DNA from: a virus
UHGV virus genome: UHGV-0397187
DNA: 41,531 bases
Strand: one strand, 5' to 3'
The notes beneath the pieces are model-generated. The model had not been told where the DNA came from. It saw nothing but the letters and a program-made list of their open reading frames with translations, and did no database searches. Made by a program: the position numbers and the translations under genes. Below, piece after piece: positions 14,609 through 19,902 of this stretch (within the stretch, counting starts at the first letter, position 1; each line of letters begins with the position of its first letter).

Positions 14609-14946
14609 ATTACCGAGTAAGGCGATGGACTACCTGAAGCGAAACGGGCTGACAAGCGTGGAGGATATTTTACGATGACCTGGCCTGAGGCATTCACCAC
14701 GGTAGGAATTGCAATGGCGGTGGCGCTGGTGGTGTATTCGATTTGCCGCTGGGGATAAAAACGGTTTGCGGGAAAAGGAGAGTTAAGTAGAATTGCAGCG
14801 GGTGCTTGAGGCTATCTGCCTCGGGCATGAACACCAACGGCAGATAGATAAAAGCCCCACCCGACTATAAATCGAAGTGAGGCCCCTATATGCTCGTCAC
14901 ATATAGATTGCCTCTTACGGACCGAAAGGTCAAGGAGAAGCAGGCT

Positions 14947-15102
14947 ATGAAGCAGCAAAAGGCGATGTTAGTCGCCCTGATCGTCATCTGTTTAACCGTC
15001 ATAGTGACGGCACTGGTAACGAGGAAAGACCTCTGCGAGGTACGAATCCGAACCGGCCAGACGGAGGTCGCTGTCTTCACAGCTTACGAACCTGAGGAGT
15101 AA
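14947..15102 (+). CDS. hok: Hok/Gef-family type I toxin
   Basis: MKQQKAMLVALIVICLTVIVTALVTRKDLCEVRIRTGQTEVAVFTAYEPEE: hallmark Hok sequence; aaggag RBS; in-frame upstream extension from 14890. Confidence 0.9.
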   Translation: MKQQKAMLVALIVICLTVIVTALVTRKDLCEVRIRTGQTEVAVFTAYEPEE

Positions 15103-15171
15103 GAGACCCGGCGGGGGAGAAATCCCTCGCCACCTCTGATGTGTCAGGCATCCTCAACGCACCCGCACTTA

Positions 15172-15196
15172 ACCCGCTTCGGCGGGTTTTTTGTTG
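15172..15196 (+). terminator. intrinsic terminator after hok
   Basis: acccgc-ttcg-gcgggt followed by ttttttgtt. Confidence 0.75.
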
Positions 15197-15338
15197 CGCG
15201 CTGAATACGCAGGGTGAAAAATAACCATATATTTGATTATATACACAACAAAAAATAAAAGTCATTGCACCTGCACATTAAATAATCAAATATACGACGT
15301 GAAATAAATATTTTTCAGATTAATATTTTTGTCTCTAT

Positions 15339-15590
15339 GTGGATATAACCGTTTGTACTTATAAACCTGGAGGCATCGTGGAAAAAATAAAGAAACTATT
15401 TAGTAGCAAATATGCAGTCATACGTCGTGATGACCTGTCAGTTATAGTCGAAATGGATTACTTCCCTGAAACCAAAAAATCAATGATGTATCGTAATGGT
15501 CGAAAGGCAATTTTTTTACCGATGAGGGTAAGTGACATTATGGGAAATGATAAACTGCTGGATGAATTGCGAGTCAGAGCATCCTGTTAG
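15339..15590 (+). CDS. Rem-like small protein (Qin-type gene order hok-rem-DUF1367-Q)
   Basis: 83-aa ORF between hok and the DUF1367-like gene, same size and position as Qin rem; a GTG at 15377 with ggagg RBS is an alternative start. Confidence 0.45.
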   Translation: MDITVCTYKPGGIVEKIKKLFSSKYAVIRRDDLSVIVEMDYFPETKKSMMYRNGRKAIFLPMRVSDIMGNDKLLDELRVRASC

Positions 15591-15661
15591 TATTGGCATT
15601 AATTCTGGTATACTACATAACGGGCTGAACACCCATTCTACTGCGCCAGCGGAGAACTACG

Positions 15662-16261: not shown

Positions 16262-16551
16262 TGGTGGATTTACGTAAAGCGGCGCGGGGGCAGATGTGCA
16301 CCGTCAGAATTCCTGGCTACTGCAATCACAATCCCGAAACTTCTGTGCTGGCGCATTACAGGCTGGCGGGGATGTGCGGAACAGCGACAAAACCACACGA
16401 TATGCAGGCAGCGATTGCCTGCAGCTCATGCCACGATTTAATCGACGGGCGGGTAAAAACCAGCGATTACACCAAAGAAGAATTACGCCTGATGCATGCA
16501 GAAGGTGTTTTTCGCACACAAGAAATCTGGAGAAAGGAAGGTTATTTATGA
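16261..16551 (+). CDS. YbcO-like (DUF1364) zinc-binding putative nuclease
   Basis: MVDLRKAARGQMCTVRIPGYCNHNPETSVLAHYRL..CGTATKPHD...IACSSCHD parallels DLP12 YbcO as recalled. Confidence 0.7.
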   Translation: MVDLRKAARGQMCTVRIPGYCNHNPETSVLAHYRLAGMCGTATKPHDMQAAIACSSCHDLIDGRVKTSDYTKEELRLMHAEGVFRTQEIWRKEGYL

Positions 16552-17102
16552 TTTACCCAACAAATACAGGCAAAAGCGGGGAACACCTTCGTCTCACCAC
16601 GCTGGAAAGTGTCTGGATTCAGGGAAAACTGCGCATGTGGGGGCGCTGGTCGTATATTGGCGGCGGTAAGACGGGAAATATGTTTAACCAGTTGCTGACC
16701 TCTAAAAAGCTAACAAAAACGGCAATTAATGAGGCGCTCCGGAGGATGAAAAAAGCAGGTCTGGACAAACCTGAACTTGAGGCTTTTTTGCGGGATATGA
16801 TCAACGGCAAGCAAAAAAGCTGGCTGGTGCATTGTACTGATGCAGAGGCGTTATGCATTGATCGGGTGATTAGTGAAGTGCTGGCAGAACACCCAGGATT
16901 GATTTGTATCCTCCGGCAAAGATATGAAGGGCGGGGGATGAGTAAGCGCAAAATGGCTGAATTGCTGAATGATGCACACCCCGAGTGGTGTTTCCGGACG
17001 TGCTGCAGTCGGGTAGATGTATGGCTAAATCTTGCTGAATATATGCTCTATCTACCGATGCGTGATGCATTCTCTTCCGGGGATCTAAAAACCGTCTGTT
17101 GA
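16548..17102 (+). CDS. putative late-gene antiterminator (Q-like)
   Basis: 184-aa ORF whose stop overlaps the -35 of a strong promoter followed by a short-transcript terminator (PR'/tR' arrangement); lysis genes follow. Confidence 0.55.
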   Translation: MIYPTNTGKSGEHLRLTTLESVWIQGKLRMWGRWSYIGGGKTGNMFNQLLTSKKLTKTAINEALRRMKKAGLDKPELEAFLRDMINGKQKSWLVHCTDAEALCIDRVISEVLAEHPGLICILRQRYEGRGMSKRKMAELLNDAHPEWCFRTCCSRVDVWLNLAEYMLYLPMRDAFSSGDLKTVC

Positions 17103-17128
17103 CTCAATCTGTTATCCGGGGCTATATT
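17099..17128 (+). promoter_or_regulatory. late promoter PR'-like (sigma70)
   Basis: -35 ttgact (17099-17104), 18-bp spacer, -10 tatatt (17123-17128). Confidence 0.6.
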
Positions 17129-17189
17129 CCTCACGCGCCAGCAAAATCTGGCGTCGGGATTGGCGTCCCGGATAGAGACCGCGACAGAT

Positions 17190-17213
17190 ACACGCCGCGA
17201 GCGTGTTTTTTAT
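17190..17213 (+). terminator. tR'-like intrinsic terminator about 65 nt downstream of PR'
   Basis: acacgc-cgcga-gcgtgt followed by tttttatt. Confidence 0.6.
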
Positions 17214-17372
17214 TGTCGTATGCACGCGCACATCTGAATTATGGTGGGCTGTGTGGGGGCGGAGAGATCCGCGCCGGTCGGTTTCCCGGTTACGCCAACC
17301 CTGCACAGTTCACCACCAGATGATTGGCGTCGTCGGTGGTGAGTTATTAAGAAACCACCAGAGGGCGTCATT

Positions 17373-17930
17373 ATGACAACTCAAATTTCTGTTGAAACTC
17401 TCTCCCCGATCACCCATAACCAGATTCCTGTTATTACCACCGAACTTTTGGCGCAGCTTTACGGCACTGAGCCGGTGCGTATTCGCCAGAATCATCATGA
17501 GAACAAAGTACGCTTCGTTGAAGGGAAACACTTTTTCAAAGTTGTTGGTAATGACCTTAAAGAATTGCGGGTCGCTTTAAACTACTCACAAAATCCAGTT
17601 TCACCCAAAGCCCGCTCCCTCATCCTCTGGACAGAACGAGGCGCAGCACGCCACGCCAAAATGCTCGAAACCGATCAGGCATGGGATGTGTTCGAAAAAC
17701 TGGAAGACTGCTATTTCAGTCAAAAGGATCCGTCAACGCCAGTTTCATGCCAGAAAAGTTACGACACGCGAGTTCTCTGTTATCAGAGAGGCGGTGTCAC
17801 TGTTTCCACAATTCAGTTACGGGATGATGATATTGTTATTTCCCTTGAGTCATGGCTGGAACTGGCGAGAGCCAATGGTTGGTTTGTTGTTCGCAGAGAT
17901 CAACTGGTGGAAAGGTTGATGCAGCTTTAA
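17373..17930 (+). CDS. ORF6N-domain (antirepressor N-terminal-like) protein, moron
   Basis: ITTELLAQLYGTEPVRIRQNHHENKVRFVEGKHFFKV fits the ORF6N/KilA-N-like pattern; own terminator downstream. Confidence 0.5.
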   Translation: MTTQISVETLSPITHNQIPVITTELLAQLYGTEPVRIRQNHHENKVRFVEGKHFFKVVGNDLKELRVALNYSQNPVSPKARSLILWTERGAARHAKMLETDQAWDVFEKLEDCYFSQKDPSTPVSCQKSYDTRVLCYQRGGVTVSTIQLRDDDIVISLESWLELARANGWFVVRRDQLVERLMQL

Positions 17931-18025
17931 AAAAGTTCTTGCATTTTTGCACATAAACTGCTTCAATCCCGGTACGCTTCGCAAAGCTGTATCGCGAGGC
18001 GAACCAAGCGCATGAACTTTACCAG

Positions 18026-18054
18026 AACCCGCCATTGAGCGGGTTTTGTTGTTT
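18026..18054 (+). terminator. intrinsic terminator after the ORF6N-like gene
   Basis: aacccgc-cattga-gcgggtt followed by ttgttgttt. Confidence 0.7.
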
Positions 18055-18163
18055 CTGGTACTGGCGAACCTGATGTTTCATTTCTGGAGCGCGATTCCTG
18101 GCGGAATACCTGGAATCGAGACATTCTGGTAAAATTGTGTTCAGTACAGGATGTGGAGGTGAG

Positions 18164-18733
18164 ATGAGAGAACTACCTAAAGTTTATTTTTTAGGAGTAG
18201 ATGATGAGCTCGTCGATTATCTTGAAAAACAAGGGGAAGAGACGATACGAGAGATTCATCTTTCTAACAAAACCAATGTTGAGAATGGATACAAACTTCT
18301 GAACATTCAGATTGTTGGAATTGGCTCATCTTTTTTATTGCTGACACAGAAAACTAATTTCGATTTTCTCACCGCCGGAATTACCACATTTACATTGCTA
18401 TGGACATGGTGCGCCATTTACTTGGTATGTACTGGTTTATCTGTGAAGGTTAGGGGCCTGATCAATGCCCCTCCTGATCATCTATATCATGAAAAATATA
18501 AGGATATGGAGCCCTCGAGCTTTAAAATATTCGCTGATGCAGGATATTTAGGACCTGATAAGTTATTGCCGCTTATACGAAGGTATCGCCTTGTTGACTT
18601 GAGTGATACAGCAAGAGAGTTACTGTTGGAAAATGAGAAAATCCGCACGAGTCTCGATAAAGCAAGGATGTATACTATCCTTGCTCCGGTAGCGGCGATG
18701 TTTATCTCGGCTGTTTTTTTATATGTTCAATGA
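18164..18733 (+). CDS. AT-rich membrane protein of unknown function (moron)
   Basis: ATG at 18164 after ggaggtgag RBS; hydrophobic segments IVGIGSSFLLL, ITTFTLLWTWCAIYLVCTGL and C-terminal MYTILAPVAAMFISAVFLYV; visibly AT-rich codon usage. Confidence 0.6.
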   Translation: MRELPKVYFLGVDDELVDYLEKQGEETIREIHLSNKTNVENGYKLLNIQIVGIGSSFLLLTQKTNFDFLTAGITTFTLLWTWCAIYLVCTGLSVKVRGLINAPPDHLYHEKYKDMEPSSFKIFADAGYLGPDKLLPLIRRYRLVDLSDTARELLLENEKIRTSLDKARMYTILAPVAAMFISAVFLYVQ

Positions 18734-18863
18734 CTGAGTCGGCAGAATCTCCAACAAAAACACGACGTGTAGCAAAGTCTGCAGTACTTTGTGTTGGAGT
18801 TGGTTTTGGTGCCACGGGTTGCTGAGGTTTATTTTCACCTTGTGGCTTGTTTTTTTCAGACAT
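18702..18863 (-). CDS. small Pro/Gln-rich protein, convergent with and overlapping the membrane-protein gene
   Basis: MSEKNKPQGENKPQQPVAPKPTPTQSTADFATRRVFVGDSADSVIEHIKKQPR; aagagga RBS 7 nt upstream of the ATG on the minus strand. Confidence 0.4.
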   Translation of the reverse strand: MSEKNKPQGENKPQQPVAPKPTPTQSTADFATRRVFVGDSADSVIEHIKKQPR

Positions 18864-18957
18864 AAAAATCCTCTTTGTTTGAATTGTTACTTTTGGCGAT
18901 TTAACGATATCAAACACGAGTATATACCGCCAGAAGCTTAATCTGGCACTCCATCTG

Positions 18958-18985
18958 GCCCCGGCATGTCCCGGGGCTTTTTCGT
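18958..18985 (+). terminator. plus-strand intrinsic terminator closing the moron block
   Basis: gccccgg-catgtc-ccggggc followed by tttttcgttgtt. Confidence 0.6.
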
Positions 18986-19080
18986 TGTTAGGCTCCGGAA
19001 ACATCCTCGACTTCTTGTTAGCAAGCCTGAGAGCCTGAATCTTACACTTAGCACCATCCGAACTCTCGGAGGTGAGGCTT

Positions 19081-19422
19081 ATGAAAATGCACAATGCCCC
19101 TCATTCCTGGCCTGACTTACTGGAACTCTTACAAAGTTGGTGGCGTGGAGATACGCCGCTGGGTGCAGTGGTTATGTCAATTATTATGGCTGGTTTGCGC
19201 ATTGCCTATTTTGGCGGTGGCGGCGGCTGGAAACGAAAAACGCTTGAGATTCTGCTTTGTGGTGCTCTGACGCTGACCTTTGCATCCGCGCTTGAGTATG
19301 TCGGATGGCCTAAATCACTTTCTGTTGCCATTGGTGGTGGGGTGGGGCTGATTGGTGTTGATGCTATTCGTGGTGCGGCAATGAGGGTCATCGGTAACAA
19401 GTTCGGTGCCCATAAGGAGTAA
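19081..19422 (+). CDS. holin (lambda S-like, dual-start MKM motif)
   Basis: ATG at 19081 after ggaggtgagg RBS; MKMHN dual-start; hydrophobic segments; directly upstream of endolysin. Confidence 0.75.
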   Translation: MKMHNAPHSWPDLLELLQSWWRGDTPLGAVVMSIIMAGLRIAYFGGGGGWKRKTLEILLCGALTLTFASALEYVGWPKSLSVAIGGGVGLIGVDAIRGAAMRVIGNKFGAHKE

Positions 19423-19425
19423 TTA

Positions 19426-19902
19426 ATGCAGACACTTAATTCCCAGCGTAAAGCTTTCCTTGATATGGTGGCATGGTCAGAAGGAACAGATAACGGACGG
19501 CAGAAAACCAGAAATCACGGTTATGATGTTATTGTCGGTGGCGAACTGTTCACTGATTACTCCGATCACCCCCGCAAACTTGTCACGCTAAATCCGAAAC
19601 TCAAATCAACAGCCGCCGGACGTTACCAGCTTCTTTCACGCTGGTGGGATGCCTACCGCAAGCAACTTGGCCTGAAAGATTTTTCTCCAGAAAGTCAGGA
19701 TGCTGTAGCGCTGCAGCAGATTAAAGAGCGTGGCGCTTTACCGATGATTGACCGCGGCGATATTCGTCAGGCAATCGACCGTTGCAGCAATATCTGGGCT
19801 TCGTTGCCGGGCGCTGGTTACGGTCAGTATGAACATAGAATCGGTGACCTGATTGCCCGATTTAAAGAAGCTGGTGGGGTGGTAAATGAAGCTGAGATAT
19901 AA
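19426..19902 (+). CDS. R: endolysin, lambda R-type lytic transglycosylase
   Basis: NSQRKAFLDMVAWSEGTDNGRQKTRNHGYDVIVGGELFTDYSDHPRKLVTLNPKLKSTAAGRYQLLSRWWDAYRKQLGLKDF matches lambda R almost residue for residue as recalled. Confidence 0.95.
   Translation: MQTLNSQRKAFLDMVAWSEGTDNGRQKTRNHGYDVIVGGELFTDYSDHPRKLVTLNPKLKSTAAGRYQLLSRWWDAYRKQLGLKDFSPESQDAVALQQIKERGALPMIDRGDIRQAIDRCSNIWASLPGAGYGQYEHRIGDLIARFKEAGGVVNEAEI

Follow-up and report, generated by a model that had tools for sequence, protein, structure and literature searches.

RexA/RexB of lambda and the SieA and SieB proteins of P22 and lambda are membrane proteins expressed from a prophage, by which other phages are excluded or aborted; the rexAB genes sit in the repressor operon. 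The txpA/RatA and bsrG/SR4 systems of Bacillus prophages are type I systems whose partners overlap at their 3' ends. In lambdoid phages, cargo such as stx or the nmpC/lc porin of DLP12 and PA-2 lies between the late terminator and the holin gene. Part of the background on rex and sie was drawn from PMC10883804. Here we describe a pair of convergent genes at the latter position in the virus genome UHGV-0397187 (41,531 nucleotides, referred to as the window), a lambdoid prophage of the E. coli type: a plus-strand gene for a predicted inner-membrane protein of 189 residues and a minus-strand gene for a micro-protein of 53 residues. The order of genes in this part of the window is DUF1367, DUF1364, a DUF1133-type Q, the studied region, a lambda-family holin and lysis genes. 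A preliminary description of the region reported a block of three genes. Its three open reading frames (ORFs) are present at the positions it gave (Table 1), but the block consists of two separate units, because the first gene, encoding an ORF6N-domain protein, belongs to an antirepressor unit that probably lies upstream of the late promoter. The cargo pair is the second unit.

The pair shares with the known Q-to-holin cargo its position between the late terminator and the holin gene, a deviant composition, its replaceability among sibling prophages and candidate signals of its own. As in the case of nmpC of DLP12, one cargo gene lies on the minus strand. The products, however, are unrelated, the cargo of the window is a convergent overlapping pair, and DLP12 lacks the conserved 27-nt backbone element that heads the minus-strand gene here. 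PD-T4-10, a toxin-antitoxin system that acts by abortive infection and has been validated by experiment (Vassallo et al. 2022, PMC9519451), is a further point of comparison. Both are two-gene cargoes without a predicted function, and one sibling prophage has a PD-T4-10-like pair in this slot, likewise behind the 27-nt element. PD-T4-10 has no sequence similarity to either protein of the window, and its genes are co-directional, overlapping and encode soluble proteins, whereas the genes of the window converge and one of them encodes a membrane protein.

In distant relatives of the pair the small gene is found in a repressor operon, which resembles the situation of rexAB. Sequence or fold similarity between the pair and RexAB, SieA or SieB was not detectable; the partner is a disordered protein of 26–67 residues and not a RexA-like sensor, and the genes converge instead of forming a single operon. 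Likewise, no sequence or fold relationship was found to the superinfection-exclusion proteins P22 SieA, HK97 gp15 and T4 Imm. With txpA/RatA and bsrG/SR4 the pair has in common a prophage-encoded membrane product opposite a convergent, 3'-overlapping transcript. A type I toxin-antitoxin system was nevertheless rejected as an identification: the would-be toxin has 189 residues in place of fewer than 60, its convergent partner is protein-coding (ratio of non-synonymous to synonymous polymorphism, pN/pS, of 0.52), and only the geometry of the 3' overlap matches. A type II toxin-antitoxin system was rejected as well, since the genes converge and neither a toxin nor an antitoxin domain was found in Pfam, NCBIfam or PADLOC.

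The convergent gene pair

The membrane protein contains three hydrophobic helices, as the preliminary description had recognized; the soluble loop between the second and the third measures about 75 residues (it had been put at roughly 80). An AlphaFold2 model based on an alignment of 46 sequences (mean pLDDT 83.5) comprises long helices at residues 14–62, 68–91 and 134–188. Transmembrane helices 2 and 3 (TM2 and TM3) exceed the Kyte-Doolittle cut-off of 1.4. The first one (TM1, LLNIQIVGIGSSFLLLTQ) is more weakly hydrophobic; its GIGSS motif is invariant or almost invariant. Hydropathy and charge distribution suggest a topology with the N-terminus inside and the C-terminus outside, in which both soluble parts, including the 75-residue loop, would be cytoplasmic. 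The gene is visibly AT-rich, as had been pointed out before: its GC content is 0.391 and that of the small ORF 0.414, compared to 0.486 for the window and 0.48–0.51 for the flanking Q and holin genes.

A word-index search returned 104 proteins, most of them 189 residues long and all annotated as hypothetical; the named sources were Enterobacterales throughout. The profile search of 1.84 billion representatives yielded 104 clusters with relatives of 160–200 residues, 16–42% identity and the same architecture. Neither the membrane protein nor the small protein has a match in Pfam, NCBIfam or PADLOC, and their PHROG matches are to families of unknown function only. A Foldseek comparison of the membrane-protein model with viral models returned nothing and thus no informative structural neighbour. 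Profile searches against PDB sequences gave chance-level hits only (e.g. GpsB, E = 0.087), and scans of 58 distant family members with Pfam, PADLOC and PHROG assigned no family. The homologue search with the small protein found hypothetical proteins only, and papers on either protein were not found by accession number, PHROG id or topic. The earlier judgement that neither product is recognizable therefore holds: no relative of known function was found in Pfam, NCBIfam, PADLOC, the PDB or the homologue searches.

The small gene was correctly characterized beforehand as a convergent, overlapping, Pro/Gln-rich ORF with a ribosome-binding site. Its hydrophilic product has an N-terminal half rich in Pro, Gln and Lys, a conserved motif F..R.FVGDSA and a basic C-terminus. 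Across relatives the peptide follows the pattern MS..NKP, a Pro/Gln/Lys-rich tract, DF..xR.FVGDSA and a basic tail. In a single-sequence AlphaFold2 model residues 1–26 are unstructured, and the C-terminal half forms two short helices. Pairwise differences at the three codon positions are 0.40, 0.31 and 0.55. Since pN/pS is 0.52 in frame as compared with 0.97 and 1.12 in the shifted frames, the comparative data identify the small ORF as a real coding gene under purifying selection. RefSeq (WP_071779784) gives this gene 71 residues; the extra 18 codons are the translated conserved non-coding element upstream of it. A coding N-terminal extension was rejected, because the frame of the element with respect to the cargo varies between loci and no wobble pattern is present, and the 71-residue start was rejected because a conserved ribosome-binding site is found only at the 53-residue start. 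The automatic call is probably 18 codons too long, and the comparative data support a start at 18863.

The two genes travel together. Among the 98 loci that encode a near full-length membrane protein, 91 have the small ORF beside it according to a strict motif (convergent, ATG start, ribosome-binding site), and the 3' overlap amounts to 20–35 nt in 91 of the 98. Most of the remaining seven have a variant small ORF, one has an insertion sequence (IS) at the site, and one or two are frameshifted. A relative from Gilliamella (32% identity) is accompanied by a convergent, 26-residue version of the small protein. All of the six inspected distant loci, L183, L184, L185, L189, L190 and L191 (20–34% identity), have a convergent small ORF, whose products of 28–67 residues are Pro/Gln/Lys-rich and basic; the peptide of L191 retains the sequence VFVGDS. 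The overlap is 4–63 nt in five of these six loci, and the genes of L191 abut.

In close relatives with inspected neighbours the pair is located between Q with its terminator and the holin. This placement holds with different Q families (DUF1133 or Phage_antitermQ), different holins and different lysis genes. Four of the six distant loci have the pair in the immunity region beside a repressor gene: in L183, L185 and L190 the small gene lies downstream of a Peptidase_S24 (cI-type) repressor gene on the same strand, and the pair of L189 is next to a repressor-like gene, which faces ydaS/ydaT. The surroundings of seven distant relatives were read, and in six of them neither Q nor a lysis gene is close by; L184 is too short to judge. 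Since these pairs are found beside a repressor and without lysis genes, there is no fixed link between the pair and the lysis cassette. The immunity-region placement is also the strongest hint that the small gene may be expressed in the lysogen.

Of 5426 complete E. coli genomes, 223 (~4%) contain the pair; it is also present in many other Enterobacterales, and the carrier strains come from varied hosts. In phage records the membrane gene is rare (5 of 50,697). We regard the pair as a well-supported, widely conserved and so far uncharacterized two-gene family that is a candidate for a new mechanism.

The cargo slot and its conserved element

The preliminary description had assigned the late promoter PR' and the terminator tR' to positions 17099–17213. 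This stretch is instead the promoter and body of an isrK-type small RNA (sRNA; Rfam 78 bits at a gathering score of 50). The assignment was rejected in view of the Rfam match, the copy in the nin region of VT2-Sakai (see below) and the prophages without the ORF6N gene. In the latter, which comprise many E. coli prophages including L001, L003 and L187, the stop codon of a Q that is 86% identical to the Q of the window is directly followed by a stretch homologous to 17938–18163. The ORF6N gene is therefore probably located upstream of the late promoter and not in the cargo slot. A likelier PR'/tR' would be the candidate promoter and the terminator that follow the ORF6N gene (Table 1). A terminator precedes the membrane gene in nearly every lineage; the candidate promoter was not called by the promoter scan. 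With PR'/tR' at 17939–18056, only the membrane gene and the small ORF would occupy the slot between tR' and the holin, and the terminator that had been credited to the ORF6N gene (18023–18048) is more likely tR'. In the LT-IIb prophage record KU052038, tRNA genes and holins are preceded by a stretch related to 17939–18056 (82% identical).

The segment 18164–18863 has the hallmarks of a lambdoid moron: it lies after the Q terminator and before the holin, it has a deviant GC content, and it is replaced in L102 and L103. These two loci have the same Q, ORF6N gene and holin as the window and carry a different convergent pair at the same place. Our comparisons identify the pair as horizontally mobile, linked cargo between the late terminator and the holin, with both genes under selection. 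Horizontal acquisition, previously suggested on the basis of composition, is in line with the deviant GC content and with the replaceability among siblings with the same backbone.

The small ORF is headed by a conserved non-coding element of 27 nt, which occurs once in the window (0 expected). The element is conserved across genera even though the coding DNA has diverged to approximately 50% protein identity, and a dyad within it covaries (GTTA/TAAC to GTTG/CAAC). Its minus-strand sequence is TTGATA, 18 nt, TAACAA, and it probably serves the small ORF as promoter or operator; as a sigma-70 promoter it is plausible but a poor match. The nmpC promoter region of DLP12 was considered as a further copy of the element and discarded, because no match was found allowing 3 mismatches.

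Scanned viral contigs contained 79 stretches with the 27-nt element. The small ORF follows the element in about two thirds of the occurrences; in about one third the element is followed by unrelated minus-strand cargo with its start at an equal distance. Besides the small ORF the element heads at least six cargo types, i.e. at least seven different minus-strand types in total. The alternative cargo in L102 and L103 is a 92-residue protein with a convergent partner of 76 residues; other occurrences head a 179-residue protein or proteins of 148 and 165 residues. In L110 the cargo is a three-gene operon led by a 67-residue zinc-ribbon gene, and its last two genes match PD-T4-10_A (1.1e-04) and PD-T4-10_B (8.9e-08). 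As unrelated cargo is found behind the same element, the site behaves as a cargo hotspot with a backbone promoter/operator. A description of a hotspot marked by this element was not found in the literature searched.

Convergent, 3'-overlapping pairs with a plus-strand gene of 76–84 residues and a minus-strand gene of 92–99 residues were observed in L102 (1992–2486), L103 (1998–2492) and L124; neither gene gave significant matches in Pfam or PADLOC. The convergent arrangement may recur as a design at this slot.

Further signals surround the pair. Most lineages have TAAAAT, or a variant with one changed base, at a constant distance ahead of the ATG of the membrane gene, with differing flanks and no conserved -35 hexamer. 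The extended -10 sequence of the window is probably the gene's own promoter; it was not passed by the sigma-70 scan, and Pantoea shows no separate -10 in the interval from the terminator to the membrane gene. On the opposite side, the closing plus-strand terminator described earlier was recovered by the scan at 18957–18978 with a covarying stem (compensatory changes in six of seven pairs). The other plus-strand terminator noted before, 18023–18048, was recovered by the scan as well, and each is followed by a T run. A three-hairpin model has 91.7% of its cells paired, compared to 30–48% with the partners slid, and none of 500 shuffles reached the observed score. The overall layout looks like tR', a -10, the membrane gene meeting the small ORF that is read from the conserved element, a stem-loop, a terminator and the holin.

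Possible functions of the pair

The reading that we favour, tentatively and with somewhat less than half of our confidence, is a toxin/antidote-like exclusion or abortive-infection module composed of a membrane effector and an antidote or regulator expressed in the lysogen. The 189-residue protein would act as an inner-membrane effector that oligomerizes via that face of its weakly hydrophobic first helix which carries the invariant or nearly invariant GIGSS motif, and it would either damage the membrane or prevent DNA from entering. The largely disordered small protein would be made in the lysogen; its source would be the conserved minus-strand element in the window and the repressor operon in the distant relatives. 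The small gene could restrain the effector by convergent transcription and antisense pairing over the shared 3' end, perhaps also by direct binding. A drop in its expression would then tip the balance towards the membrane protein. Such a drop might be triggered by an invading phage that shuts off host expression, or by Q-driven late transcription from the opposite direction that overruns the promoter of the small gene.

The module reading draws on the linkage of the two genes, the selection on the coding frame, the behaviour as cargo, the hotspot, the link to the repressor, the confident helix model and the presence of putative own signals. The two transcripts would have to run into each other and overlap, and the pair is found in places where prophages hold conflict genes that are expressed in the lysogen. 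An exclusion, abortive-infection or toxin/antidote role, which the preliminary description had put forward, would also fit the known defence system in the slot of sibling prophages, although by association only.

A number of observations weigh against this module. The convergent orientation is not the usual layout of toxin-antitoxin genes, and the argument from a slot shared with a defence system would be guilt by association. The search of both products for defence families, suggested earlier, gave no support: neither protein matches PADLOC-DB v2.0.0 at E-values up to 1, and a profile of close relatives of the membrane protein has no match in Pfam, NCBIfam or PADLOC. One of the 58 distant members matches PycTM (PADLOC, 1.5e-08) and one a CBASS 2TM effector (4e-05). 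The matching members were not traced among the 20 proteins rechecked, and the matches may be due to a shared membrane-effector module or to transmembrane composition. At the 27-nt element the sigma-70 scan called no promoter, scores being below the thresholds. In addition, the variants L044, L122 and L169 combine an intact membrane gene with a frameshifted small ORF (the frameshift variant has a 1-nt change after codon 4), and in seven ST361-related genomes a 1-nt deletion in the overlap alters both C-termini. Both kinds of variant argue against a strictly essential protein antidote. An A7 run is located near each end of the small ORF (18702–18733 and 18846–18856), and variants in A7/T7 runs may represent homopolymer sequencing errors, real variation or phase variation, or may be offset by compensating changes elsewhere.

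A bolder version, which we consider doubtful, is that the pair founds a new, widespread class of prophage defence or exclusion modules, namely a switch, made up of the disordered micro-protein under a lysogenic promoter and the convergently overlapping three-helix effector, that senses the loss of lysogenic expression. It would be set off when an invading phage shuts off expression or when the prophage is induced, and it would respond by membrane damage or a block of DNA entry.

Among the other explanations a late-phase helper of the carrier phage survives best, even though we regard it as unlikely. According to this idea the membrane gene, being the first one behind tR', would be expressed upon Q antitermination, its product would serve the lytic cycle of the carrier, for example in superinfection exclusion during lytic growth or holin tuning, and the small gene would only be a lysogenic silencer. 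In the inspected close loci the membrane gene indeed lies on the late strand, right behind a terminator located downstream of Q and directly before the holin, across types of Q and holin; Pantoea has no visible separate -10 between terminator and gene; and convergent late transcription would naturally turn the small gene off. On the other hand, six of seven distant relatives have no Q or lysis gene and four are located beside a repressor, other cargo is found with the same holin and backbone, the gene is present in only 5 of 50,697 phage records, and most lineages retain the gene's own upstream -10. The membrane protein matches no holin or antiholin family in Pfam or PHROG. An identification as holin, antiholin or lysis accessory was discarded on the grounds of this missing family match, the occurrence of the same holin with other cargo and the distant loci without lysis genes.

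Lysogenic-conversion cargo that alters host envelope physiology (stress tolerance, transport, colonization) to the lysogen's advantage and outside phage conflict is, in our view, improbable. Such cargo is known from the Q-holin slot: DLP12 has nmpC there, on the minus strand between quuD and essD, and VT2-Sakai has stx downstream of Q. Moreover, a membrane protein is encoded, and the hosts of the carrier strains are varied. This explanation leaves the fixed partnership with a convergent micro-protein and the link to the repressor operon unaccounted for, however. The membrane protein has no similarity to transporters, porins or envelope enzymes (Pfam, NCBIfam and PDB profile searches), and the other identifiable cargo at the element is a defence system.

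That the minus-strand transcript acts mainly as a type-I-like antisense RNA on the 3' end of the membrane mRNA, with an incidental or secondary peptide, is very improbable: the 3' overlap (20–35 nt in 91 of 98 loci, 4–63 nt in five of six distant ones) has the geometry of txpA/RatA and bsrG/SR4 of Bacillus prophages, but it is short and absent in L191, the reading frame is under purifying selection with conserved motif, start codon and ribosome-binding site, and 189 residues are far more than type I toxins have.

The neighbouring antirepressor unit and further features

The coordinates of all features are compiled in Table 1.

Table 1. Features in and around the studied region of the window, in order of position.
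Feature	Position	Strand	Evidence or remarks
Q antiterminator, DUF1133-type	16548–17102		Pfam 1.2e-106
Sigma-70 promoter of the isrK/C4 unit	17099–17128	+	TTGACT, 18 nt, TATATT; promoter scan, 10/12 matches
c4-a1b1 target element	17122–17174		overlaps isrK sRNA; Rfam 52.9 bits, gathering score 46.7
isrK-type Hfq-binding sRNA	17135–17211	+	Rfam isrK 78 bits, gathering score 50, E = 2e-16
Terminator of the isrK sRNA	17190–17206 (to 17213)	+	terminator scan
C4-type antisense RNA, P1/P7 immI kind	17237–17320	+	Rfam C4 66.7 bits, gathering score 45, E = 3.4e-12
ORF6N-domain antirepressor, AnrP/Ant-like, 185 aa	17373–17930	+	Pfam ORF6N 2.7e-20
Candidate late promoter PR'	17939–17967	+	-35 TTGCAT 17939–17944, 17 nt, -10 TTCAAT 17962–17967; read from sequence
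-10-like TACGCT, possible pause element	17973–17978	+	
Intrinsic terminator, probably tR'	18023–18056	+	scan: 10-pair stem, then T run (18023–18048)
Extended -10, TGgTAAAAT	18127–18135	+	~30 nt upstream of the membrane gene ATG
Membrane gene, 189-aa predicted inner-membrane protein, phrog_11870	18164–18733	+	ORF with GGAGG ribosome-binding site
Small gene, 53-aa hydrophilic micro-protein, phrog_14506	18702–18863	-	GAGG ribosome-binding site; overlaps 3' end of membrane gene by 32 nt
Conserved non-coding element	18884–18913	-	GTTACTTTTGGCGATTTAACGATATCA on + strand at 18886–18912; upstream of small ORF
Conserved stem-loop	18929–18947	+	GCCAGA, 7-nt loop, TCTGGC; compensatory changes in 3/6 pairs
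Intrinsic terminator closing the cassette	18957–18985	+	scan: 8 pairs (7 G-C), T run
Holin, lambda-family	19081–19422		Pfam Phage_holin_3_1, 1.9e-27
Gene directly after the holin	19426–19902		RefSeq in sibling prophages: glycoside hydrolase (family 24); lysis-protein genes next

The segment 17099–17930 can be identified by its sequence as an isrK / C4-antisense / orf45 / AnrP-type antirepressor unit of known biology, with a predicted mode of regulation. An Rfam scan covering 16900–19200 gave three matches above the gathering scores. The stretches ACGCCAA and CACCACC of the C4 RNA are complementary to UUGGCGU and GGUGGUG at about 17328–17347 (read from the sequence), upstream of the ribosome-binding site of the ORF6N gene. 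The ORF6N-like identity of the protein had been noted correctly. It matches the anti-repressor family phrog_2379 at 2.6e-94 over the full length, and a small upstream frame (17203–17376) ends at an ATGA shared with the ORF6N start codon at 17373.

Gifsy-1 has the layout antQ-isrK-orf45-anrP (PMC4825925). Similar to Gifsy-1 and to immI of P1/P7 (c4-icd-ant), the window has a Q-like gene upstream of the unit, an isrK-type sRNA with its own promoter and terminator, a C4 antisense RNA with a1/b1 targets and an antirepressor of the ORF6N/Ant type. The small frame ending in ATGA at the antirepressor start corresponds to the arrangement of orf45 and anrP in Gifsy-1 (PMC4825925). In contrast to Gifsy-1, the Rfam scan found no isrJ downstream of the unit. 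The ORF6N gene, formerly taken for cargo, is thus the antirepressor of an isrK/C4-controlled unit of the Gifsy-1 kind.

Stx phages contain the segment 17112–17720 at 97–98% identity in their nin region, where it is located upstream of ant. The DNA identity ends at 17720, and the C-terminal half of the window protein differs from Ant of the Stx phages. There the isrK/C4 segment is located far upstream of Q and has its own -35 hexamer; the equivalent promoter in the nin region of VT2-Sakai reads TTGACG, 18 nt, TATATT. Given this location and the own -35 hexamer, the unit is a self-contained module and not the late promoter. For annotation this means that an isrK/C4 antirepressor unit beside Q can be mistaken for PR'/tR'.

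The layout of Q, isrK, ORF6N gene, terminator, membrane gene and small gene is also found in L005 (PP818812.1, 'Actinobacillus phage vB_Apl-pPE4'). From Q to the ORF6N gene this record shares 89% DNA identity with the E. coli window, which is unexpected for a phage whose listed host belongs to the Pasteurellaceae, and a TerB-domain gene follows the pair.

The plus strand of 18915–18985 resembles the 3' part of an Hfq-type sRNA or a 3'UTR-derived RNA (3'UTR, 3' untranslated region); an Rfam match was not found at this position. Pas sRNAs have been described directly upstream of holins in Stx-like prophages (bioRxiv 10.64898/2026.05.13.724894). Further upstream in the window, the GC content drops to 0.31–0.39 at 15100–15600. 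The offset from L002, a near-identical sibling, would place a type I toxin gene of the hokD type at about 14893–15048 and a small hypothetical gene at about 15324–15536. The sibling L003 has a gene annotated as 'beta family protein' upstream of the corresponding nin-region genes.

The 27-nt element provides a simple sequence handle for mining a lambdoid cargo hotspot, in which a PD-T4-10-like system and several cargoes of unknown kind are already found. Should the pair be a defence or exclusion module, it would represent a new protein family for which Pfam, NCBIfam and PADLOC hold no model and PHROG only families of unknown function, and its architecture would be unusual, with convergent, 3'-overlapping genes one of which is a protein-coding micro-gene. 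If it even founds a new class, the 27-nt element would mark an unrecognized hotspot of defence cargo in lambdoid prophages, comparable to the hotspots of P2 and P4.

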